This document shows positions 3 to 18,476 of a stretch of DNA of 64,000 nucleotides, one piece after another. Made by a program: the position numbers and the translations under genes. Position 1 is the first letter of the stretch, and each line of letters opens with the position of its first letter. The notes beneath the pieces were generated by a model. That model worked only from the letters and a program-made list of their open reading frames with translations. It did no database searches and was not told the DNA's origin. Origin of the DNA: Pseudomonadota bacterium (GTDB lineage: Bacteria; Pseudomonadota; Gammaproteobacteria; UBA12402); contig JBBTCW010000006.1 in assembly GCA_038043025.1 (NCBI GenBank), positions 26,710-90,709 of the forward strand. Direction: 5' to 3'.

Positions 3-551
3 ACCGATCGGGCGACGATTAAAGGTTGTTTAACCATGAATTTAAATTATATGATAGAGGCGTCGACAGGCTCCTTGGGGCATGGCTTACCGATCGCAGT
101 GGGGATGGCTCAGGCATTTAAAATGCAACGAATGGATAATAAAGTAATTTGCATTGTTGGCGATGGAGAGATGCAAGAAGGGAGTAATTACGAGGCACTT
201 CAGTTGGCCTATCGATTTAAACTGAACAATTTACTTATTATGGTGGATGCTAATAACTTGCAAGCGATGGATAGAGTTGAAGATGTGGCGCTTGATAATA
301 ATAAGCTGTCCAGTATTTTAAAAAATTATGTGAATCCTTGTGCGTTCCTGGATATTGATGGGCATAGCGAAAATGCATTACAGAAATCACTGAAACAGTT
401 TTTTCATTCACAAAACGATTCTTTTTCGATTATTTTTTGTAGAACGGTTAAGGGGAAAGGATTGTCGCTTATAGAAAATTCAATTAAACATCATTTTAGA
501 TGTCCTGTTGAAGATGGTTATCAAATAGAGGAATGTGAAGAAAATGTTTGA
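3..551 (+). CDS. Transketolase N-terminal (ThDP-binding) subunit, 5' end cut by the window edge
   Basis: ORF 36..551 stays open in frame back to base 3 with no stop. The GDGEMQEGSNYEAL ThDP-binding motif and a GSLGHGLP motif fit the transketolase N-terminal half. Confidence 0.7.
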   Translation, partial: TDRATIKGCLTMNLNYMIEASTGSLGHGLPIAVGMAQAFKMQRMDNKVICIVGDGEMQEGSNYEALQLAYRFKLNNLLIMVDANNLQAMDRVEDVALDNNKLSSILKNYVNPCAFLDIDGHSENALQKSLKQFFHSQNDSFSIIFCRTVKGKGLSLIENSIKHHFRCPVEDGYQIEECEENV

Positions 552-1035
552 AGAAACAGCGAGTAAGAACATATTGATGCAATCGCTTTACCCATATTTT
601 AAGTCAGATGAAAAGATGGCATTATTAGTTGGCGACATGGGGTTTGCGGTATTGGATGATTATTTTAATCATCATGCTGAACGAGTATTCAATATTGGGA
701 TTGCTGAGCAGGCGATGGTTAGTATGGCGGCCGGAATGGGGCTGGCCGGATTAAAGCCTATTATATATACACAGATACCGTTTTTGACCATGCGCGCTTT
801 CGAACAAATACGTTACGATATATGCGAACATAAATTGAATGTTAAGATGATTGGTATCGGCGCTGAAAATTATTTTAATGTGTTGGGGCGTAGTCATTGT
901 GTGGATGAAGATGATGTAAAAATTATGTCGATTTTTAAATCTTTATTAATTTTATTACCGACAGCTGCTACGATACAAGATGATTTGAAAAAATGTTTTG
1001 AGTATGATGGTCCGGTTTACATTCGTTGTAAATAA
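535..1035 (+). CDS. Transketolase C-terminal-subunit-like protein (pyrimidine-binding domain only, unusually short at 166 aa)
   Basis: Translation resembles the transketolase central pyrimidine-binding domain (GDMGFAVLDD, IAEQAMVSMAAGMGLAG). It overlaps the upstream tkt N-subunit gene by 17 nt. The gene is too short to include the usual C-terminal domain. Confidence 0.55.
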   Translation: MKKMFEETASKNILMQSLYPYFKSDEKMALLVGDMGFAVLDDYFNHHAERVFNIGIAEQAMVSMAAGMGLAGLKPIIYTQIPFLTMRAFEQIRYDICEHKLNVKMIGIGAENYFNVLGRSHCVDEDDVKIMSIFKSLLILLPTAATIQDDLKKCFEYDGPVYIRCK

Positions 1036-1098
1036 TATCGTGATTTACCAGAGCATCATCGTTTGAAAGATTAACCTTATAATTATCAGGGTGCGTGC

Positions 1099-2229
1099 AT
1101 GAGCAAATTAATGTTAGATGAGGAAAGCGAGTTAATATTAGATGGCTCTAAAATAATCTGGCATCAAGAGCGGTTAGAGCAATGGAAAAGAGGTGAGCGT
1201 TTTGCGCCGATCACTATTGACATGGCGTTGACTCAAGCTTGTCAATATAATTGTGAATTTTGCTATGCAAAATTACAACAAAATAAAGGTCATCGCATTA
1301 CGTTTGAGATCATGAAAAATTTTATCGATGATTGCGCCGAAATTGGGGTCAAAGCAATTAGTTTAGTCAGTGACGGAGAAAGTACCGCTAACCCTATTTA
1401 TCAGGATGTTATTGTTTATGGTCATGAAAAGGGGCTCTCTATGGCGTTAGGGACGCATGGGCATACACTGACGGAAGATGTGCTCGAAAAAATATTACCT
1501 GCGTTGACGTATATTCGTGTGAATTTTACAGCAGGTGAAGCGGATCGATACGCAAAAATACATGGTGTGCCCGAAAGTTATTTCTATGATGTTGTTGAGA
1601 ATATTAAGACAGCCATGCGGTTAAAGAAACAACATGGGTTAGATGTAACGATCGGCATGCAAATGGTGTTGATGCCTGAATATGCAGATCAAATTTTACC
1701 CTTGGCGAAGCTAGGAAAAGAAATTCGTCCGAATTATTTAGTTATTAAGCATTGTTCGGATGATGAAATGGGGTCTCTTGGCGTTAATTATGACGGATAT
1801 GAGCGGCTTTTTAATCTTTTAAAAGAAGCGGAAAGTTATACGGATGATGAATATTTGGTAAAGGTAAAATGGTCTAAGATTAAATCGGCAGGTAAGCGTT
1901 CATATAGTTGTTGTTATGGTCCGCCATTTCATTTGCAAATGTCCGGTTCTGGTTTGATCGCGCCATGCGGTAGTTTCTTTCATCCCCGATATGCAAGATA
2001 TCATATTGCGCATATTGATCAAGGAGACAGACTAAAAGATGTAGTGTTTAGTGATCGATACTGGGATGTCATGAATGAGTTAGCGTCAGAAAAATTTGAT
2101 GCTAAGACGATGTGTGCTGCGCTGTGTTTACAGCATAAGACAAATGAAGTTCTGGACGGCTATAAGAAAAATAAAATTTCCTTGGATAAGCCAACGGGTA
2201 AAAAACCACAACATATTGATTTTATTTGA
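1099..2229 (+). CDS. Radical SAM protein
   Basis: CQYNCEFCYA matches the CX3CX2C radical SAM cluster motif near the N-terminus. 376 aa, with GESTANP nearby. Confidence 0.6.
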   Translation: MSKLMLDEESELILDGSKIIWHQERLEQWKRGERFAPITIDMALTQACQYNCEFCYAKLQQNKGHRITFEIMKNFIDDCAEIGVKAISLVSDGESTANPIYQDVIVYGHEKGLSMALGTHGHTLTEDVLEKILPALTYIRVNFTAGEADRYAKIHGVPESYFYDVVENIKTAMRLKKQHGLDVTIGMQMVLMPEYADQILPLAKLGKEIRPNYLVIKHCSDDEMGSLGVNYDGYERLFNLLKEAESYTDDEYLVKVKWSKIKSAGKRSYSCCYGPPFHLQMSGSGLIAPCGSFFHPRYARYHIAHIDQGDRLKDVVFSDRYWDVMNELASEKFDAKTMCAALCLQHKTNEVLDGYKKNKISLDKPTGKKPQHIDFI

Positions 2230-2240
2230 TAAGGTGATGT

Positions 2241-3722
2241 ATGTTAATTGATAGTTGCGTGAATGTATTAGAAAATATAAAAAGCATCGCGGCTAGCCGA
2301 GATATTATCTTAATTTCGGGTAAATTTAACATATTACACCCCGGGCATATTCGCTTATTAAAATTTGCTAAGAGTTTGGGCGATTTTTTAGTGGTTGCTT
2401 TAGAGCCTGACATTTCCGATAAGACATTGTTGCCCTCGCATTTGCGATTGGAAGCCATTAATGCGACGCATTATGTCGATTATGCTTTTGTATTGCAGTC
2501 AAGCGCAACGGATTTTATTGCGGAATTAAGACCCCATATCGTTGTGAAAGGCAGCGAATTTGAGGCGAGACATAACCCTGAAGAAGCGGTGTTAGCTTCT
2601 TACGGGGGAAAATTGGTTTTTGGTTCGGGCGACATTCGATTTTCCTCCTTGGATTTATTAAAAAAAGAGTTCAGTCAATTTGAATTATCCACCATTGAGA
2701 AACCACTGGATTATCCGCGTCGACATAATTTTAATTTTAATGATTTAACGGCGCTTATTAATAAATTTTCTTCTCTGAATGTACTAGTGATTGGCGATAC
2801 GATTGTGGATGAATATGTGATGTGTGATCCGCTCGGCATGAGTCAAGAAGACCCCACGATTGTGGTCACCCCTATCTCATCGAATAAATTTTTGGGTGGC
2901 GCGGGTATTGTGGCGGCGCATGCGCGTGGATTAGGGGCTCATGTGAGCTTTTATTCGATATTGGGCGATGATCAATTATCTAACTTTGTCGAAGAAAAAA
3001 TGCAGGAATATCGTATTGATGCGCATTTATATACGGATAAAACAAGAGAAACTACGCATAAACAGCGTTTCCGAGCCAATGGCAAGACGTTATTAAGAGT
3101 CAACCGATTAAAACAGCATTATATCGATAATGAGTTGCAGGAAACAATACTTCAAGATATTCGCCATCATTTAGATAAAATAGATTTATTAATTTTTTCT
3201 GATTTTAGTTATGGCTGTTTACCAAAAAAATTGATTGCAAGTATATCGGCGCTTGCGTTAGAACATAATATTATTGTTACCGCAGATAGTCAGTCGTCTT
3301 CACAAATGGGGGATATTTCGCGGTTTAATAACATGTCATTGGTCACCCCGACAGAAAGAGAAATTCGATTGGCGGTGAAAGATTTTGAATCGGGATTAAT
3401 TGTGTTGGCGGATAAGTTGCGGCAGAAAATTCATCCGGCGAATATTGTTATTACGCTAGGCGCAGAAGGGATGATTATTAATGAGATGCGAGATCCCGCC
3501 GCTGACTTATTAACGGATCGATTGCCGGTGTTTAATAAAGCGCCCAAGGATGTCGCTGGCGGTGGCGATGCTTTGCTCGTCGGAACCTCGCTTGGGCTGG
3601 CGGCAGGCGCTGATATTTGGCAAAGCGCTTATGTCGGCGCACTTGTAGCGGCTTGTCAGGTGGGACGATTAGGAAACTTACCCTTGCAGCAAAAAGAAAT
3701 TCTAAAAGAGATCATGAGTTAA
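2241..3722 (+). CDS. Bifunctional cytidylyltransferase-like / pfkB-family sugar kinase (HldE-like domains in reversed order)
   Basis: N-terminus has the nucleotidyltransferase HxGH motif (GKFNILHPGHIRLL). C-terminal half is a pfkB carbohydrate kinase (LVIGDTIVDEY; DVAGGGDALL signature near the C-terminus). Confidence 0.6.
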   Translation: MLIDSCVNVLENIKSIAASRDIILISGKFNILHPGHIRLLKFAKSLGDFLVVALEPDISDKTLLPSHLRLEAINATHYVDYAFVLQSSATDFIAELRPHIVVKGSEFEARHNPEEAVLASYGGKLVFGSGDIRFSSLDLLKKEFSQFELSTIEKPLDYPRRHNFNFNDLTALINKFSSLNVLVIGDTIVDEYVMCDPLGMSQEDPTIVVTPISSNKFLGGAGIVAAHARGLGAHVSFYSILGDDQLSNFVEEKMQEYRIDAHLYTDKTRETTHKQRFRANGKTLLRVNRLKQHYIDNELQETILQDIRHHLDKIDLLIFSDFSYGCLPKKLIASISALALEHNIIVTADSQSSSQMGDISRFNNMSLVTPTEREIRLAVKDFESGLIVLADKLRQKIHPANIVITLGAEGMIINEMRDPAADLLTDRLPVFNKAPKDVAGGGDALLVGTSLGLAAGADIWQSAYVGALVAACQVGRLGNLPLQQKEILKEIMS

Positions 3723-4424
3723 ATGAAAGCGCTATTATTAGCCGCGGGCTTTGGTAATCGATTAAAGCCGATTACAGATTACATGCCAAAATGCTTGGTT
3801 CCTATCAATGGGAAACCATTATTAGCATATTGGATAGAAAATTTAGTCGCTGCGGGCGTTCAAGAAATATTAATTAACCTACATTATAAAGCTGACCAGG
3901 TTCAAGCGTTTGTTGATCATTCTCCCTATAAAACGATTATTAAAACCGTTTATGAAGAAGAATTATTGTTAACGGGCGGAACGTTACATAGGAATAGAAA
4001 TTTTTTTGGTCATGATGATGTGTTAATGGCGCATGCGGATAATCTTTGCATCTGTGATTTTAAAAAATTTATGCAAACTTATTATGACCGCCCAAAAAAT
4101 GTTGATATGACGATGATGACGTTCAACACGGATAATCCGACATCTTGCGGCGTCGTTGAATTAAATAATAATATTGTTGTTGGTTTTTATGAAAAGGTAA
4201 AAAATCCTCCCAGTCATTTAGCCAATGGCGCTGTATATATTCTTTCACAAGAGGTGTTGGGGTTTTTGGAAGGATTGGGCAAGGAAAAAATTGACTTTAG
4301 CACAGAAGTGATTCCTCATTTTCTAAATCGAATCAATACGTTTCATAACAGCATTTACCATCGAGATATTGGTACGCTAGAAAGTTACGCGCTGGCTCAA
4401 CTAGAGGTGGAAAAATTATTATGA
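3723..4424 (+). CDS. Sugar-phosphate nucleotidyltransferase (NTP-transferase family)
   Basis: LLAAGFGNRLKPIT is a GxGxRL pyrophosphorylase motif. 233 aa. Start abuts the upstream stop. Confidence 0.6.
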   Translation: MKALLLAAGFGNRLKPITDYMPKCLVPINGKPLLAYWIENLVAAGVQEILINLHYKADQVQAFVDHSPYKTIIKTVYEEELLLTGGTLHRNRNFFGHDDVLMAHADNLCICDFKKFMQTYYDRPKNVDMTMMTFNTDNPTSCGVVELNNNIVVGFYEKVKNPPSHLANGAVYILSQEVLGFLEGLGKEKIDFSTEVIPHFLNRINTFHNSIYHRDIGTLESYALAQLEVEKLL

Positions 4425-6713: not shown

Positions 6714-7890
6714 TCCTCGTTTATTTATTACAACGTTAAAAAATTGCTTGCCAAGCGCTCAGGCGAGTATTGCATTGCATGAACCGTTATTTGCTGGCAA
6801 TGAATGGCGTTATGTTAAAGAATGTTTGGATACTGGCTGGGTCTCTTCGGGTGGAAAATTTGTGGATCGATTTGAATATGATTTGGCAGCGTACACTGGC
6901 GCGAAACATTGTGTGGTTGCCGTGAATGGTACTGCGGCGTTGCATATTATTTTTTTGTTGGCGGGCATCAAGCCAAATGATGAAGTATTGGTGCCAGCCT
7001 TGACATTTATTGCCACCTGTAACGCGATCGCCTATTGTGGCGGCGTTTCTCATTTTATTGACAGTGAAGAATCTCATTTAGGCATCGATTTTAAAAAATT
7101 GGAACGTTATTTATCTGACATAACAGAAATCAAAGACAATGTTTGTTACAATAAATTAACTAAGCGGCCGATTCGTGCGTTATGTGTAATGCATACGTTT
7201 GGTCATCCCGTGGATTTAGATGCGGCGATGGCTTTATGTGATCGTTATCATTTGAAGTTGATTGAAGATGCGGCTGAAGCATTGGGTTCTTTTTATAAAG
7301 GTCAGCATGTGGGACATCATGGTTTTGCCGGGGCATTAAGTTTTAATGGAAATAAAATCATTACGACAGGTGGCGGCGGAGCAATCGTCACGGATGATGA
7401 AAGCGTGGCTAAAAAAGCGAAGCATATCACGACAACGGCCAAACTGCCGCATCATTGGAAATATGATTATGATTGCATCGGTTATAATTATCGCTTACCG
7501 AATATTAATGCGGCGCTGGGATGTGCGCAGTTAGAAAAACTACCTGAATTTCTGCAGAAAAAACGCCAACTGACAGAACGATATGAAAAAACATTTAAAC
7601 ATTATGATGGATGCCGGTTTATCGAAGAGCCGAAAGAGGCAAAAAGCAACTGTTGGTTAAATGCGATATTGTTGGACAATTCCAGCCAGCATCTTCGCAA
7701 TGATATTTTAGAATTAGCGATTAAAAATAATATTTTTTTGCGGCCGGTGTGGGAGTTGATGGATACATTGCCGATGTATCAACATTGTCCGCGCATGGAT
7801 TTGTCGGGGGCGAAAAGTATCGCTGCTCGATTAATTAATATTCCGAGCAGTGTTTGTTTAAGTGAGGAGCCGGCGTGCGAAAAATATTAG
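6694..7890 (+). CDS. DegT/DnrJ/EryC1/StrS-family PLP-dependent sugar aminotransferase
   Basis: Family-typical layout with SFNGNKIITTGGGGAIVT (PLP lysine), EDAAEALGS and CVMHTFGHP. Confidence 0.75.
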   Translation: MGNMSFDPRLFITTLKNCLPSAQASIALHEPLFAGNEWRYVKECLDTGWVSSGGKFVDRFEYDLAAYTGAKHCVVAVNGTAALHIIFLLAGIKPNDEVLVPALTFIATCNAIAYCGGVSHFIDSEESHLGIDFKKLERYLSDITEIKDNVCYNKLTKRPIRALCVMHTFGHPVDLDAAMALCDRYHLKLIEDAAEALGSFYKGQHVGHHGFAGALSFNGNKIITTGGGGAIVTDDESVAKKAKHITTTAKLPHHWKYDYDCIGYNYRLPNINAALGCAQLEKLPEFLQKKRQLTERYEKTFKHYDGCRFIEEPKEAKSNCWLNAILLDNSSQHLRNDILELAIKNNIFLRPVWELMDTLPMYQHCPRMDLSGAKSIAARLINIPSSVCLSEEPACEKY

Positions 7891-10110: not shown

Positions 10111-10935
10111 GTTTTTTGTAAATACTCTAAAGAGTAAGGGTGAATAGTTTCCAATAGCTGGCGGGAATGCCGCATCGAGAAATTTCACAAATTCAGTGTT
10201 TCTGATAGGCGCATTTTCTGGTCGTAGAGATTCATGCAATACTCTTGCCGTAAAATAGTGGGTGGATAAATAATTTTGAGGTATTGAAGTATTTATTTCG
10301 GTAAACCCTGTATTTTTCATTTCATCTATAATAGATTCGCTTAAATAATTATTATGATATGCTGGTTTCATTTCCGTTAGGCATAGTTCTTGCTGTGCTT
10401 TATTTAAGTTGACCAAGGGTTCGATAAAGGATTCTATCATGATGAAGATGCCATCTGTGTTCAAAATAGTATATATTTTTTCAATTGCCGTTATTTGATC
10501 TTCCTTAGAGAGTAGATTGATTAAGACTCTTTCGGAAATCACTATATCAAAAGAATTTGGCTTGAAGTTATCTTTCCTGCAGTCGTCTTGAATGAGTTGA
10601 ACATTTTTTAATGTTCTTTCGCTGGCTAATTTATATAATTCTTTATTGAATTCTAATCCATGAAATTTGAAGTCAGGATATCTTGCGGATAATTGCGACA
10701 AGAGATAGCCATTTCCACAACCCACATCTAATATGGTTAGATTTTTATCTTGTTTTTTATACGTCTTGTCTATTGTGTTAAAAATAAATTCAATTTCTTT
10801 ATCTCGTATAAAAATATCATGCATAGTGGATTCTTTTGAGCTGCCCTTGTTGGTTGCTTCTTTGTTATAATGTGTTTGAATAACATCATGAGGGTTCATA
10901 ATATTCCTTTTGATAAGAGTTTGATGAAAGGACAA
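10105..10935 (-). CDS. Class I SAM-dependent methyltransferase
   Basis: ILDVGCGNGYLLSQL glycine-rich motif I. 276 aa on the minus strand. Confidence 0.6.
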   Translation of the reverse strand: MSFHQTLIKRNIMNPHDVIQTHYNKEATNKGSSKESTMHDIFIRDKEIEFIFNTIDKTYKKQDKNLTILDVGCGNGYLLSQLSARYPDFKFHGLEFNKELYKLASERTLKNVQLIQDDCRKDNFKPNSFDIVISERVLINLLSKEDQITAIEKIYTILNTDGIFIMIESFIEPLVNLNKAQQELCLTEMKPAYHNNYLSESIIDEMKNTGFTEINTSIPQNYLSTHYFTARVLHESLRPENAPIRNTEFVKFLDAAFPPAIGNYSPLLFRVFTKNS

Positions 10936-11059
10936 GATTATTCAGATTATTGTAGCGATTGATATTGCTAATACAAGAAAAATATAGGGCGTTAAGGAGG
11001 GTAAGGGCCGCATTTGTTCATATTTTGAACACGTTATTATTAGTTGTTGCAAATGCTTT

Positions 11060-12190
11060 ATGGTAATATACATCCTCAAATCGGTTGCCATTGCTGGTAG
11101 CGGAGATGGGTCGATTAATATTCTTGTGAGGTTGTTTGTGTACGATGTAGAATGGAAAAAACTTTTAGTTAATCCAGATTGTACATTAGAAAACGCCATT
11201 CGCGTGATTAATCAGGGTGCTTTGGGCACCGTGTTTGTTGTCGATCATGATTTAAAATTATTGGGTGTAGTGACGGATGGCGATGTGCGTCGTGGTTTAT
11301 TGCGACATGTTACGCTGGATCAGCCTGTTTTTTCCGTGATGAATGATCAGCCGAGGATGGCCATGCGCAATATAGATGTTGCCGAATTGATTACCATGAT
11401 GGAAGAACAGTCGATACGTTGTGTGCCGATTGTGGATGAAAATCAATGCATGATTGACGTAGAAATTTCACCGTATTTGCGTCGCGAGGCTAAAAATACG
11501 AATTGGGTGTTTTTAATGGCCGGTGGTTTTGGCACGCGATTAAAGCCATTAACCGACGATTGCCCGAAGCCATTATTGAAAATTGGCGGGCGTCCCGTTT
11601 TAGAAAATATTATTCAACAGTTTAAATTGAATGGGTTTCAGAAATTTTTTATGTCCGTTCATTATAAATTGAATATGGTGAAAAGTTATTTTGGTACGGG
11701 GGAACAGTTTGGCGTTGATATTAAATATCTTGAGGAAGAGGAGCCGTTGGGGACGGGTGGATCATTGGGCTTGTTACCCGAAATATCCCAGCCTTTAATC
11801 GTGATGAATGCCGATGTGTTAACGAAGGTGAATTTTCGTCAATTATTACAGTTTCATCTGGATTCAAAAGCTGCAGTGACGATGTGTGTGCGTGAATATG
11901 GTATGCAGGTGCCTTATGGTACCGTTCAGATCGATGGGCATGTTGTCACAGAAATTATTGAAAAACCCTCGTATCAATTTTTTATTAATGCGGGTATTTA
12001 TGTGTTATCGCCGGATGTCGTTAATGGGATTCAGGGAAAAAATAATTTTGATATGCCAACATTATTTAATCGGTTGATTCAAGAAGGCAAGACCGTAGTG
12101 ACCTTTCCCATACATGAATATTGGTTGGATATGGGCAAGATGGAAGATTTTAAACGTGCGCAAATAGATATTTCACCCTTTGTATCATGA
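11060..12190 (+). CDS. CBS-domain-containing sugar-phosphate nucleotidyltransferase (PtmE-like)
   Basis: N-terminal CBS-pair-like region, then an NTP-transferase domain (MAGGFGTRLKPLT, GxGxRL). This architecture is known from legionaminic acid pathways. Exact start uncertain. Confidence 0.6.
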   Translation: MVIYILKSVAIAGSGDGSINILVRLFVYDVEWKKLLVNPDCTLENAIRVINQGALGTVFVVDHDLKLLGVVTDGDVRRGLLRHVTLDQPVFSVMNDQPRMAMRNIDVAELITMMEEQSIRCVPIVDENQCMIDVEISPYLRREAKNTNWVFLMAGGFGTRLKPLTDDCPKPLLKIGGRPVLENIIQQFKLNGFQKFFMSVHYKLNMVKSYFGTGEQFGVDIKYLEEEEPLGTGGSLGLLPEISQPLIVMNADVLTKVNFRQLLQFHLDSKAAVTMCVREYGMQVPYGTVQIDGHVVTEIIEKPSYQFFINAGIYVLSPDVVNGIQGKNNFDMPTLFNRLIQEGKTVVTFPIHEYWLDMGKMEDFKRAQIDISPFVS

Positions 12191-14689: not shown

Positions 14690-14710
14690 TTATTTATAGA
14701 GCAAGAAAAA

Positions 14711-15898
14711 ATGTTTAATAAAGTTATTTTTTTGGTGTATTCCTATCATCACTCAATCGAGCATGAGCGCTTTGGTGTTTATGAGTTTGAAAAAAATAAT
14801 TTTTCAGTAGAGATTTGGATTTTGGCAAAAATTTTTTTGCCCGATAGGGAAACAAAATATTTATATGAAGAAAATGCCAATACTCAGAATATTAAAGTTT
14901 TTCATAACAAGGCTGAGTACAAAAATGCAATGAGATATTTGGATAAAAAGACTATCGTCATCAGTTATATTCCCTATGCGATCTCTTGTTATTTTATTTA
15001 TAGAGCCTTAACCAAATACCGCGTTACCTACATGTTGAACTCATGTTGTCATGTGCCTTCGTCAGAGGGGAGCCGACAGGTTTATGATAGTTGGTGGCAT
15101 TTTATATCTGCTAAGCTACAAGGTAAATTTTTTTTACGTTGCATGGAATGGGTGTTTCGTAAAATGCCAGGATATTTAATTGGAATTCGGCCGGCCAATG
15201 CCGCCTTGTTGGGAGGAATAAAAACATGGGGTGTGCATCGACCCGTCGGTCATCGCACGTTGCGATGGTATTTGCATGAAGATGATTATGAACGATTTTT
15301 AAAAGAAAATAAAACGCCATGCCAAGTAGATGAATCACTGTGTGTTTTTTTAGATTCGTATATTCCCTATCATCCGGATATGTCGTTTATGGGAGCGAGC
15401 GGGTCTATTGATCCCCAAAAATATTATCGTAAATTATGCTGTTTTTTCGATTATTTAGAACAAACTTATCATTATCATGTGGTCATTGCAGCGCATCCGC
15501 GCTCCAGATATCATGAGCATCCTGATTGTTTTGGTGGACGGGAAGTCATAAAAGGAAAAACAGTTTCATTGGTGAGAGCAAGCGGATTAGTCTTGGGTGA
15601 TGCAAGTGCATCAACAAGTTTTGCTGTCCTTTATAAAAAACCCATTATTTTTTTAATGATGGACATGTTAAAGCCCCACAAAATATATGAAAATTCTAAA
15701 AAATTTGCGGTCGCATTAGGCACGGAAATATTAAACTTGGATAATGATTTTAGTCATTTTGATTTAACGTCGAAGCTGCACATTAATCGAAATGCCTATA
15801 AAAATTATTTGGAAAATTATATTAAGGTTTCGGGTTCACCGGATACTTTATTTTGGGAATCTGTGCTAGACAAGCTCCATGCAGGCGCTTTGGGTTAG
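14711..15898 (+). CDS. Hypothetical protein, possible GT-B-fold glycosyl/nonulosonate transferase
   Basis: 395-aa ORF directly after the CMP-NulO module. C-terminal region (HVVIAAHPRS...LGDASASTSFAVLYKKPIIF) looks like a GT-B nucleotide-binding domain. No firm family call. Confidence 0.3.
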   Translation: MFNKVIFLVYSYHHSIEHERFGVYEFEKNNFSVEIWILAKIFLPDRETKYLYEENANTQNIKVFHNKAEYKNAMRYLDKKTIVISYIPYAISCYFIYRALTKYRVTYMLNSCCHVPSSEGSRQVYDSWWHFISAKLQGKFFLRCMEWVFRKMPGYLIGIRPANAALLGGIKTWGVHRPVGHRTLRWYLHEDDYERFLKENKTPCQVDESLCVFLDSYIPYHPDMSFMGASGSIDPQKYYRKLCCFFDYLEQTYHYHVVIAAHPRSRYHEHPDCFGGREVIKGKTVSLVRASGLVLGDASASTSFAVLYKKPIIFLMMDMLKPHKIYENSKKFAVALGTEILNLDNDFSHFDLTSKLHINRNAYKNYLENYIKVSGSPDTLFWESVLDKLHAGALG

Positions 15899-15919
15899 CG
15901 ACTATAATTATTTGGATGA

Positions 15920-16663
15920 CTATAGATCTGATATTTTCCACACGCCAATTTTTTTATCGGGACGAGAACAATATTTTGGGTCGATATCTTCATTAATATA
16001 TTGTAGCGGCGGGGGAAAACAAAAAGGGGGCTGTAAAAAATTTATCGTATGATGTGATCCAGTAATAATGTCGGTATTTTTTTTTAATTGACTAAACGTA
16101 GATGTGGCGAGATAGGTAGAGCCGCTTTTTTTAATATTGGCCAGACTTTTATAAATATCTTGAAATGAGAAGTGAATAAAAATATCTCGGCAAAAAATTA
16201 AATCGACTTTAGGAAGATTATCAGACAAAATATCGATAACTTGAAATTGTCTTTTTGTGTTTTCATATAACTTTTTATTGGTTTCTATTAATTCTTCTAC
16301 GATATCTGCTCCGATGTAATGATCCAAATTTAAAGGCATCTCATTCATCCAGAGAAAATCACCGCAGGGGATATCCAGCATAGTTTTTATGTTTAATTTT
16401 TTTAGCAATAAGAGCAATTCTGATCGCAGTGTTTTTGTTCTGTTGATGGTTGAGCTGGCGCCCGATATCGATTCACTATCCCCCCATCTATTTTTTTTAT
16501 AATAGGTAGTAAAAATTTGTTTAACGGAGTGATTTTTTAGGGTTGTTTTTAGCTGACGCTCATGCGATAGCTCTGTATAAAAATGTTTGGGGTGCCGCAC
16601 GGTATATAAAAAATGATAGAGCAGAGGAAGTCGATATTTTAGAAATAATCCTGCTTTGCTCAT
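15920..16663 (-). CDS. Class I SAM-dependent methyltransferase
   Basis: MLDIPCGDFLWMNE motif I. Start placed at MSKAGLF. The longer ORF to 16816 runs into a GC-rich palindromic intergenic element and gives an artefactual Arg/Pro-rich extension. Confidence 0.55.
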   Translation of the reverse strand: MSKAGLFLKYRLPLLYHFLYTVRHPKHFYTELSHERQLKTTLKNHSVKQIFTTYYKKNRWGDSESISGASSTINRTKTLRSELLLLLKKLNIKTMLDIPCGDFLWMNEMPLNLDHYIGADIVEELIETNKKLYENTKRQFQVIDILSDNLPKVDLIFCRDIFIHFSFQDIYKSLANIKKSGSTYLATSTFSQLKKNTDIITGSHHTINFLQPPFCFPPPLQYINEDIDPKYCSRPDKKIGVWKISDL

Positions 16664-16709
16664 TATTAAAAATCTCTCAATCAATGGGGTTAGTAAAATG
16701 TGAATATTT

Positions 16710-16880
16710 CCCCGCGGCTTGCCGCGAGGGACATTGCGCCTGGGGATTCTCAAGGGGAGCGGGCGTTCGCTCCCCTTGAGTCGCCGTCCGCGCGGGTTTC
16801 CCGCGCAGGCGATCAATAAAAGAAATAAAAATACCCCGTCCGCTTGCGGCGGGGATTTTTATTAAAAATTTCCGCCGCAA
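16710..16880. repeat. GC-rich cluster of 4 hairpin-forming palindromes
   Basis: Visible inverted repeats: CGCGGcttgCCGCG; a perfect 13-bp stem CTCAAGGGGAGCG-6 nt-CGCTCCCCTTGAG (16749-16780); CCGCGCGGGtttCCCGCGCaGG (16788-16809); CCCCGTCCGCttgCGGCGGGG followed by ATTTTTA (16834-16861). Sits in an AT-rich divergent intergenic region. Confidence 0.6.
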
Positions 16881-17132
16881 ATTGCTTCACATTATATGCT
16901 GTTATTGGTTGCGCAAAAAGAAGTTTTTTGGAAAAGATGGTTAGGGATGCTTTGGTTATCGAGTCGGGCAAATTTTGCCCATTCGCTGATTTTCAAAAAA
17001 TATTGATATTGAAGGCGAAAACCATTTATTTCATCCTGGTTATCATGGATTTTTGTTGGAATCAGTTTATAATTTGGCGATATTTTAAAGAAGATTGATA
17101 AATGTTGGCAGAAATATCGAGGCAGTTTTTTT

Positions 17133-18476
17133 ATGATATCCCCTATCATGCATAAAAAAAAACGTCTGCTCTATTATACGGGTCATTGTGAAATTGTGGG
17201 TGGCGATGTTAAATATCTATTTGAGTTATTGCAACATCTGGATAGCCATCAATTTGATATCACGATTTATGCGGATAAAAACAAAGAGTTTTCCAGAAAA
17301 ATTGCCATTGACTTTCCTGAGTTTGTGTCACAAGTGAAATACTTAGAGACAGCGCCAACATTGTTTCATCAGAACTTTTTGGAGCGCTATTATATTTATT
17401 TATCTCAAAAACAAAATAGTTTTTTGTTTAAAGTGCTTAATTGGAAGGTAAAAGGAAAAAGTTTGTTCCAAGCCGTCAATTTTTTATATACGTGTGCTTC
17501 TTTTAAATATTTAAGAGATCACGTTAGAAACTTTTTTGTGTTTTATCAACTTTTTTCAAACAAATGTAAAGACGTTGATATTGTTCATTTTAATAATGGA
17601 GGCTATCCGGGTAAGCTGGCGGGAGGGATGGCTATTGTTGTGGCACATTTTTTCGGCATTAAAAAGATCATCATGACCGTGCATAATGAACCGGTTGAAC
17701 GTCGATGGTATAGGGTTTCTGATTTTCTGTTGGATTATGGTGTTGCAAAATATTGTGATGATCTGTTAGTGCCTTCTGCTATTATTAAACAACAGTTGAT
17801 TGATTTGCGTGGGTTGCCATCGGATAAAATTCATGTCATTCAGTGTGGATTAAAAGATGAACCATTATATTCCGATCAAATGATTTATTTAAAGCGTCAG
17901 GCGCTGGGATTGATCCCAGAGCATTTGGTGCTGCTTATCGCGGGCAATTATGAAGATCCTCGAAAAGGTCATCATCTACTCTTATTGGCCTTAGCTGAAA
18001 ATATTACAAACTTTCCTACTTTAAAATTATTGATCGTTGGGGATGGATCTTTACAAAGAAAACAGGTATTGGATGATTTAGTTGATCGTTTGGGATTGGA
18101 TGATTATGTGGAGTTTTTGGGTTATCGCACGGATATGCATGCATTAAATTCGATTGCAGATGTCGTTGTCGTGCCGTCTATACAAGGGGAGGCAACACCC
18201 TATACAATCAAAGAAGCCGCGCGAGCGGGACGCCCCGTGATTACCTCAACGGCGGGCGGATGCGCGGAAGCTGTCGAACATAATGTATCCGGCTTGCTTG
18301 TGCCAGCGGGCGATATGAAAGCATTGTCGAGAGCATTAACTGTTTTATTGAAAGATGCGCGTTTGCGAAAAAAAATGGGCGAGCAGGCGAAATCATTATT
18401 TTTAGAGCGTTTTTTATTGCAAGATCGAGTAGAAGATGTTATTCAGTTGTACGCTGAACAAGTGGATGATACATGA
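17133..18476 (+). CDS. Glycosyltransferase family 4 (GT-B, group 1)
   Basis: C-terminal EX7E-type region PSIQGEATPYTIKEAARAGRPVITSTAGGCAEAVEHNVSGLLV. Confidence 0.7.
   Translation: MISPIMHKKKRLLYYTGHCEIVGGDVKYLFELLQHLDSHQFDITIYADKNKEFSRKIAIDFPEFVSQVKYLETAPTLFHQNFLERYYIYLSQKQNSFLFKVLNWKVKGKSLFQAVNFLYTCASFKYLRDHVRNFFVFYQLFSNKCKDVDIVHFNNGGYPGKLAGGMAIVVAHFFGIKKIIMTVHNEPVERRWYRVSDFLLDYGVAKYCDDLLVPSAIIKQQLIDLRGLPSDKIHVIQCGLKDEPLYSDQMIYLKRQALGLIPEHLVLLIAGNYEDPRKGHHLLLLALAENITNFPTLKLLIVGDGSLQRKQVLDDLVDRLGLDDYVEFLGYRTDMHALNSIADVVVVPSIQGEATPYTIKEAARAGRPVITSTAGGCAEAVEHNVSGLLVPAGDMKALSRALTVLLKDARLRKKMGEQAKSLFLERFLLQDRVEDVIQLYAEQVDDT

Follow-up and report, generated by a model that had tools for sequence, protein, structure and literature searches.

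A GC-rich stack of four hairpins in a groundwater gammaproteobacterial polysaccharide cluster as a probable copy of an apparently undescribed interspersed repeat family

The window analyzed here is a stretch of 64,000 nt from a Pseudomonadota bacterium (Gammaproteobacteria, UBA12402; assembly GCA_038043025.1, contig JBBTCW010000006.1, positions 26,710 to 90,709 of the forward strand), which overall represents a large, almost unidirectional polysaccharide cluster. Within this window, a GC-rich stack of four hairpins is located between a methyltransferase gene on the minus strand (ATG at 16664) and a GT4 glycosyltransferase gene on the plus strand (start at 17133). With a probability of about 0.8, we regard this stack as one copy of a ~170-bp non-coding interspersed repeat family from uncultured low-GC groundwater Gammaproteobacteria. 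When set beside the descriptions of the Rickettsia palindromic elements (RPE) and of the Coxiella QMITE elements, the family appears to be a palindromic repeat similar to RPE, to MITEs (miniature transposable elements with inverted repeats), and to repetitive extragenic palindromic (REP) sequences, and it is apparently undescribed. Because it occurs in dozens of copies, some of them in frame in essential genes, we take the element to be selfish DNA of the interspersed type, as opposed to a switch dedicated to the neighboring sugar genes.

The four-hairpin unit and its copies

The hairpin stack is the sole non-coding GC island within the 64 kb, with a GC content of 0.66 at 16700-16799 (windows of 100 nt) and a peak of 0.75 (windows of 60 nt) vs 0.39 for the whole window. 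An inverted-repeat search of the region yielded four hairpins plus one competing hairpin with 18-nt arms. The 191-nt stretch folds at -99.8 kcal/mol on the plus strand (z -7.48) and at -96.6 kcal/mol on the minus strand (z -7.20), whereby 0 of 200 shuffles fold as stably on either strand. A sequence-only reading of this DNA had described a GC-rich stack of four strong hairpins, one with a perfect 13-bp stem, and composition, inverted-repeat search, and folding all bear this out. The features lie within the interval 16710-16880 given there, but the true unit is slightly offset and is accompanied by an inverted fragment of 18 nt on the minus strand. The element is composed as follows (coordinates refer to the window).

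16694..16863, plus strand: complete repeat copy, 170 nt, subfamily A (cmsearch with model R1, 196 bits over model positions 1-169)
16694..16709, plus strand: 5' module, 16 nt, TAAAAT (a -10-like hexamer or insertion target) followed by GTGAATATTT
16710..16730, plus strand: hairpin 1 with G(CTTG)C loop, arms 16710-16718 / 16721-16729 (inverted-repeat search, fold)
16749..16780, plus strand: hairpin 2, perfect 13-bp stem and most conserved core of the family, arms 16749-16761 / 16768-16780
16785..16811, plus strand: hairpin 3, arms 16785-16796 / 16800-16811 (inverted-repeat search)
16812..16833, plus strand: A-rich linker (sequence reading, alignment)
16834..16863, plus strand: hairpin 4 (16834-16854, G(CTTG)C loop) and T-run ATTTTTATT, terminator-like 3' end (terminator scan, fold)
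16844..16880, both strands: alternative hairpin with 18-nt arms, 16844-16861 / 16863-16880 (inverted-repeat search)
16879..16896, minus strand: solo inverted 5' module TATAATGTGAAGCAATTT, 18 nt, tail-to-tail with the full copy (pattern match)

The terminator-like hairpin that had been noticed between the divergent gene starts corresponds to hairpin 4 (CCCCGTCCGCTTGCGGCGGGG), which together with the subsequent ATTTTTATT was flagged by the terminator scan and, by its sequence, presents the GC-rich stem-loop and T-run of an intrinsic terminator. It is preceded by an A-run, and the A-rich linker is the upstream A-tract that gives hairpin 4 a terminator look on both strands. Spurious Arg/Pro-rich open reading frames (ORFs) run across the element on both strands, as had been suspected from the sequence. 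The GC island and these ORFs are repeat-derived and should not be called genes or a regulator of the O-antigen cluster.

Copies of the unit are organized in the order TAWAAT-GTGAAGATTT, hairpin 1, hairpin 2, hairpin 3, A-rich linker, hairpin 4, and TTTTTATT, whereby the unit ends were set where the similarity among copies begins and stops. In the gammaproteobacterial copies, the surrounding DNA is unrelated outward from exactly both unit edges; at the left edge of subfamily-A copies, TAWAAT-GYGAAG-ATTT is kept and the DNA outside is unrelated. Species-representative genomes were scanned with the exact hairpin 2 core CAAGGGGAGCG-N6-CGCTCCCCTTG, which led to 21 stretches. These included seven in the metagenome-assembled genome (MAG) RIFCSPHIGHO2_02_FULL_42_13 and two in an uncultured Legionellaceae MAG, as well as matches in groundwater Gammaproteobacteria MAGs and one partial copy in a "Coxiella sp." MAG. 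The matches in unrelated phyla are lone hairpins, whereas the gammaproteobacterial ones comprise the whole unit. A looser pattern applied to metagenome contigs identified 77 more loci (Rifle MAG bins, Hainich groundwater, and other assemblies). The covariance model R1, which was built from 12 copies, gave ~100 sense-strand matches at 55-200 bits and antisense matches of only ~30 bits. An nhmmer search yielded 101 distinct places after removal of duplicates, at least 20 of the distinct copies, which belong to subfamilies A and B, being found within the single MAG RIFCSPHIGHO2_02_FULL_42_13. The repeat is present at several unrelated sites per genome, as is characteristic of an interspersed repeat; both orientations are seen, and the contexts are unrelated. 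The record titles of the MAGs carrying it read Gammaproteobacteria, Legionellaceae, and Coxiella sp. Thus, the MITE/REP-like insertion that had been one of several suggestions for the stack is supported, since the whole unit is multi-copy and interspersed in related genomes as well as in the same genome.

The element has a length of 165-175 nt and contains no transposase gene (six-frame peptides without Pfam match), and the window copy shows 92-93% identity to copies from the MAG RIFCSPHIGHO2_02_FULL_42_13 (contigs L028, L009, and L008). No further copy of the unit or of any of its hairpins was found elsewhere in the 64-kb window, blastn against plasmid and phage collections gave no match to the element, and no description of this family was found in the open-access literature searched. 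Four subfamilies were distinguished.

Subfamily A (the type of the window copy): TATAATGTGAAG...GGGGATTTTTATT
Subfamily B: AAAGTAAGAAAT...GAGTTGTTGAAA
Subfamily C: AACTTGATT...
Subfamily D: AAAAAATA...

With regard to the source organism, a protein identical to the GT4 protein is encoded on European Nucleotide Archive (ENA) groundwater contigs (Hainich H52) and in the MAG GCA_964359675.1, which is labeled Pseudomonadota bacterium at NCBI, and the same element is present on all of them. The differences in the element among these contigs are few; they are single-base deletions in two low-coverage assemblies, mostly in homopolymer runs. A 1.76-Mb contig of the same organism contains the window locus (L107, 99.9% identical) and a second copy ~140 kb away (L109). 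Since the L109 copy lies on the same contig, the element is multi-copy in its own genome. A protein-database search with six-frame peptides gave two matches, one of which led to this second copy, whereby the pre-selection of that search was probably swamped by low-complexity words. Three public contigs stop at 16698, 16834, and 16838, i.e., at the left edge of the element and where hairpin 4 begins, as expected for repeat-induced (de Bruijn) assembly breaks. The repeat thus explains contig breaks in public assemblies of the source organism. Contigs L001 and L003, from two low-coverage ENA assemblies of this organism, showed many single-base deletions relative to the window, mostly in homopolymer runs (e.g., at 16721, 16754, 16818, and 16856); these deletions break up gene calls and are probably assembly errors and not variation.

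Several copies are rearranged. A copy at L016 7448-7604, designated L016b, has lost hairpin 1 and kept the 5' module, a "mini" element consisting of the 5' module, a single hairpin, and TTTTTATT lies in tandem with a full copy at L096 ~2243-2282, and partial copies are arranged head-to-head at L109 ~12045-12075. Contig L016 carries three copies from two subfamilies within 8 kb (3553-3724, 767-932, and 7448-7604), one of them directly upstream of a tRNA gene, which indicates that the local density of the repeat is high there.

Conserved pairing, insertion into genes, and mobility

Covariation was scored in a model-based alignment of 65 distinct copies. Standard pairs occupied 93.2% of the cells, compared to 43-56% when the partners were slid by 1-3 columns. 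Changes on both sides were observed in 32 of the 52 pairs, and 0 of 500 shuffles reached any of the five measures; in reading these values it has to be considered that the alignment is model-fitted, that the copies are non-independent, and that most double changes separate subfamilies. Double changes affected nine of nine pairs in hairpin 1, six of seven in hairpin 3, and 10 of 14 in hairpin 4. The outer pairs of hairpin 2 also covary (UA/CG, AU/CG/UA, AU/GC), whereby the invariance of its core is partly due to its use as search pattern. An outer helix proposed by RNAalifold (CGCYU/AGGCG) is weak (73%). These data show that stem pairing is conserved through compensatory change between subfamilies.

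The loops show a strand bias. Hairpin 1 carries the loop GCTTGC in 46 of the 65 copies, and for hairpins 1 and 4 together G(CTTG)C was counted in 98 cases vs 10 cases of the flipped G(CAAG)C. This bias points to a strand-specific constraint, which might be an RNA CUUG tetraloop or recognition of a single DNA strand, with common descent as an alternative. A minority of copies carries the reverse complement in the loops of hairpins 1, 2, and 4 (CTTG to CAAG; CGTTCG to CGAACG) while retaining the stems (alignment A4). Inversion of hairpin tips in the DNA would be expected to yield such flipped loops.

Some copies are located within genes. In contig L074 (1822-1987, minus strand; ORF 101..3718) a sense-oriented subfamily-B copy lies in frame in dnaE (1205 aa) and adds ~55 residues (YKSKKSPLLAAETRALGSPEGSNAMLPSGRRSRGFPAQAKSIKETISAACGRVVE) between the NTPase domain and the finger domain. 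The orthologous dnaE from another MAG (L041, 10009..13440; 1143 aa) is without the element. The queG gene of contig L081 (ORF 3..1178, plus strand) contains an antisense subfamily-A copy (671-844, minus strand), which has TAAAAT and the terminator-like end and is placed in frame between the 4Fe-4S (Fer4_16) and HEAT-like domains. It is puzzling that a predicted bidirectional terminator should be located inside this intact-looking gene. The insertions in dnaE and queG are in frame in conserved genes, as described for RPE, and the one in dnaE is absent from an ortholog. A further subfamily-A copy (L110 2286-2455, minus strand) overlaps the 3' end of the ribulose-phosphate 3-epimerase gene rpe (1711..2502, plus strand), so that the C-terminal 40-odd residues of the 263-aa product are element-derived. 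Relative to their neighbors, copies are found in all four arrangements.

We infer that the element spreads as non-autonomous mobile DNA, and that the mobilizing enzyme probably recognizes hairpins and not terminal inverted repeats (TIRs). Hairpins 1 and 4 are alike in direct, not inverted, orientation; both have the G(CTTG)C loop and, at the base of the stem, CCCCG. The DNA at the left edge is AT-rich and semi-conserved (TAWAAT, TTTAAA, or TTA). Because hairpins 1 and 4 are alike on the same strand, no TIRs or target-site duplications (TSDs) were seen, and the 5' flank is AT-rich, the element resembles IS200/IS605- or REP-type elements. The element ends ~16 nt 5' of hairpin 1 and ~9 nt 3' of hairpin 4, a geometry that is close to IS608 and may point to single-strand elements of the IS200/IS605 or REP type. 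Classical MITE TIRs were rejected, the left end TATAATGTGAAGATTT being unlike AATAAAAATCCCC, the right end in reverse complement.

Several points weigh against the interpretation as a mobile repeat, or limit it. By inspection, no TIR or TSD is visible in the flanks of ~60 copies. A multi-copy ORF family that might represent a transposase partner was sought in ~700 kb of flanking DNA and none was found, the ORF clusters in the flanks being only the same loci in near-identical MAGs. The case for mobility comes from the copy distribution and from one filled/empty ortholog pair: a BLAST search for empty sites with joined flanks returned only the distant dnaE pair, whose empty site, at a flank identity of only 68%, is too diverged to define the junction. 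In the own genome, one full copy and one copy disrupted by an insertion sequence (IS) have been seen so far (~100 kb sampled). No consistent orientation of the copies relative to neighboring genes was found with an ORF calling that is crude and over-extends gene starts. There is also a sense-strand asymmetry, with 52 G-U vs 28 A-C mismatches, which is too mild to separate selection on RNA from selection on DNA, whereby the model-fitted alignment may favor G-U. For the local effect considered below, the terminator or insulator role is a prediction from folds and the terminator scan, and the promoter scan gave no good sigma-70 promoter for the methyltransferase gene.

The IS mentioned above is Tn5-like and was found in hairpin 1 of a copy at L109 ~10379-12075 (18-bp TIR ATGGGTTTATACATAAGT; Pfam DDE_Tnp_1, Dimer_Tnp_Tn5, and Tnp_DNA_bind) as well as in L065 and L068. 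It duplicates a 12-bp palindromic tip, GCGGCTTGCCGC, and in a different copy (tip GCTGCTTGCAGC) the identical position is likewise adjoined by this IS end. This suggests that its insertion is hairpin-targeted, like that of IS1111 in QMITE2 of Coxiella. It was rejected as the cognate autonomous IS, since its 18-bp TIRs are unrelated to the element, into which it is inserted.

Alternative functions and the effect at the locus

It might also be that the repeat is a multi-copy small RNA gene. In this case, a subfamily-A copy would be a transcription unit with a -10 element at its left edge, giving a ~155-nt RNA with two CUUG tetraloops and a terminator, and RNA, not DNA, would be the selected product, which is compatible with mobility. 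Such an RNA would account for the fixed distance of TAWAAT from hairpin 1 in subfamily A, for hairpin 4 and the T-run at the 3' end, for the retention of the 5' module in L016b even without hairpin 1, for the strong preference of the sense G(CUUG)C loop over its complement, and for the slight excess of G-U over A-C mismatches on the sense strand. There is also a precedent, as copies of QMITE1 and QMITE2 yield small RNAs, the QMITE-derived CbsR small RNAs of Coxiella (PMC5896051). However, neither a conserved -35 element (from reading the flanks) nor an extended -10 element was found, and the promoter scan is empty at the left edge. Instead of TATAAT, TTTAAA or another AT-rich stretch is present in subfamilies B, C, and D, and subfamily B ends in GTTGTTGAAA and not in a U-run. 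The in-frame copies in dnaE and queG speak against it as well, as an internal promoter and terminator would be harmful there, and conservation among near-identical copies is little informative on function. A small structured RNA had also been proposed from the sequence, together with an Rfam search; no Rfam family matched, the best scores in the window being 15-22 bits vs thresholds of 37-208, and four other copies gave sub-threshold noise only. Overall, we consider a small RNA gene unlikely. An extended version, in which a mobile small-RNA gene is selected as a promoter-to-terminator unit for its four-hairpin RNA and spreads in uncultured Legionellales-like groundwater bacteria, acting in trans or as a directional insulator and being co-opted several times for peptide loops of essential proteins, e.g., DnaE, seems quite improbable.

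The surroundings of the element, which bear on a possible locus-specific role, are as follows.

15920..16664, minus strand: methyltransferase gene (ORF and translation; weak Pfam methyltransferase matches; 247 aa in public gene calls)
16913..17086, plus strand: intergenic segment common to the relative L106, outside the element (blastn, 78-87% identity to L106 2366-2488)
17133..18476, plus strand: GT4 glycosyltransferase gene (Pfam Glycos_transf_1, Glyco_transf_4)

A cis-regulatory leader, i.e., an attenuator or a riboswitch-like 5' untranslated region for the GT4-rfbG operon or for the divergent methyltransferase gene, would be in line with two features. Hairpin 4 and the alternative hairpin at 16844-16880 are mutually exclusive, similar to a terminator/antiterminator pair, and the methyltransferase ATG is only 30 nt away from the 5' end of the element, so that the methyltransferase transcript must start in or cross it. 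However, the 170-nt unit is also found beside unrelated genes and inside genes, and no Rfam cis-regulatory family matched. In addition, the nearest GT4 ortholog (P0002 on contig L106, 85% identity) lacks the element and has other genes immediately upstream, the gene order on L106 being an adh_short gene, a 395-aa gene, a short intergenic segment, a radical-SAM gene, a Methyltransf_21 gene, and GT4. The window segment 16913-17086 is homologous to this short intergenic segment, with TTTATAATTTG in common and a TATAAT at 17068-17073. By its sequence, 16913-17086 is likely the predicted promoter region of the GT4 operon. Since this conserved segment with its TATAAT lies 3' of the element, the GT4 promoter is probably located downstream of it, and since L106 has the segment without the element, the GT4 operon does not have it as a conserved leader. 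The attenuator for the GT4-rfbG operon that the sequence-only reading had considered is therefore not supported, and the copy distribution largely refutes any cis-leader, which we regard as very improbable.

From the comparison with L106 it follows that the methyltransferase gene and the element (~15899-16912) form a block that is specific to the lineage, the O-antigen locus being mosaic. The element probably arrived with or beside a strain-specific methyltransferase cassette in this cluster. In the comparison of window 14694-16912 with L106 1169-5709, the flanking genes are 85-87% identical, and the minus-strand methyltransferase gene and the repeat of the window stand in place of the radical-SAM and Methyltransf_21 genes of L106; the 395-aa genes at the matching position show no detectable nucleotide similarity.

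The remaining idea, that the sequence is protein-coding, either for additional N-terminal residues of the methyltransferase (ORF 15920..16816, TTG start), which the sequence-only reading had named as its refuting condition, or for a small basic protein, can practically be dismissed: although ORFs span the element on both strands and the element is translated elsewhere within DnaE and QueG, public gene calls start at the canonical ATG at 16664, the six-frame peptides match no Pfam family, the open frames are accounted for by the high GC content, and the same sequence recurs in dozens of unrelated contexts with constraint on base pairing and not on a reading frame.

As an interspersed repeat, the window copy may still affect transcription locally, and this is the most speculative step of our proposal. 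In the alternative hairpin, the flanking TAAAAATTTCCGCCGCAA pairs with the T-run and with the 3' arm of hairpin 4, so that hairpin 4 is excluded. Once the flank is included, the hairpin at 16844-16880 is the minimum free energy structure on both strands. It is built from the inverted 5' module at 16879-16896 and the intervening bases. This module is an exact match to the long-form 5' module that heads the copies L016a, L016b, L044, and L081, and an inverted 5' module at the right side was seen in the window copy only. The plus-strand RNA up to the U-run folds as hairpin 4 (-17.8 kcal/mol), and the minus-strand RNA with the inverted module folds as a long hairpin (-21.9 kcal/mol), which sequesters the terminator arm. 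On the plus strand, hairpin 4 and its U-run would form first and would stop read-through from the upstream operon, antisense to the methyltransferase gene, before the GT4 promoter region. On the minus strand, the inverted 5' module would produce the 16844-16880 hairpin first, so that the terminator arm would be hidden and transcription could reach the methyltransferase gene. The local effect would then probably be that of a directional terminator or insulator, and the predicted folds suggest that the element may have such a one-directional role at this locus.

Relation to known repeat families

The Rickettsia palindromic elements RPE-1 to RPE-8 were reportedly described by Ogata et al. in 2000. 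Among these, RPE-4 and RPE-6 are mentioned in PMC3733652. Like RPE, the four-hairpin repeat is palindromic and interspersed, measures ~100-170 bp, resides in a small AT-rich genome, and has no known associated transposase, and it is found in intergenic regions as well as in frame in essential protein genes (here dnaE and queG). Unlike RPE, it has four separate hairpins and a terminator-like end instead of one long palindrome, and its hosts are groundwater Gammaproteobacteria and not Alphaproteobacteria; the likeness is one of behavior.

QMITE2 (CbsR16) of Coxiella burnetii is an element of 150-190 bp with a very stable fold and REP-like short forms, a source of small RNAs and a target of IS1111 (PMC5896051). 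By this description, our family resembles it in size, in the stable predicted fold, in the presence of dozens of copies that are intergenic or overlap gene 3' ends, and in the occurrence of short versions. Both are subject to repeated IS insertion, by IS1111 in Coxiella and by the Tn5-like IS in hairpin 1 here. The host lineages are related, and one partial copy is present in the MAG titled Coxiella sp. However, QMITE2 copies of full size carry TIRs, direct repeats of 7-11 bp, and a GTAG REP (PMC5896051), none of which was found in the four-hairpin family, and no record titled C. burnetii was matched by the exact hairpin 2 pattern in the scan of species-representative genomes. QMITE1 of C. burnetii, which has 300-400 bp, 2-3-nt direct repeats, sigma-70-like promoter elements, and basic peptides, is likewise a source of small RNAs (PMC5896051). 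The overlap with ORFs for basic peptides is a shared feature, and putative promoter-like elements and a role as a small-RNA source would be further ones. In contrast to QMITE1, the four-hairpin peptides match no Pfam family, and hence not DUF1658, and the Rfam Coxiella CbSR families gave no match.

The enterobacterial repeats ERIC/IRU (RU-1), RU-2 (168 bp), and RU-3 (PMC2759123) are comparable as imperfect palindromes of 100-170 bp with multiple intergenic copies and intragenic copies in open frames, but they have TIR-like ends and one long stem and are unrelated in sequence and host. With REP, BIME, REPIN, and IS200/IS605-derived elements (PMC3733652, PMC3337134) our family shares conserved GC-rich hairpins, the apparent lack of TIR and TSD, and head-to-head or tail-to-tail partial dimers (window 16844-16896; L109). 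However, a REP unit comprises 20-40 bp with a GTAG or CGTC tag, whereas the repeat described here has 170 bp, four different hairpins, and no GTAG. An assignment to the CGTC/GTAG REP class was ruled out by the unit size and as no tag is conserved between subfamilies (CGTC/CGTT varies). In the flanks of the copies, neither a RAYT nor a TnpA gene was found.

The window copy itself is ordinary; what deserves attention is an uncharacterized family with RPE-like behavior from poorly known small-genome groundwater Gammaproteobacteria. It may serve as an independent system in which to study the movement of such elements in the absence of TIRs and of a visible transposase, and it could show whether such hairpins act as terminators or insulators in mosaic surface-polysaccharide loci. 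As a minor observation, Rfam matched a group II intron domain V/VI on the metagenome contig L030 at 28-97 (plus strand; 47 bits, above the gathering threshold), which lies ~680 nt from a repeat copy and is probably unrelated to it.

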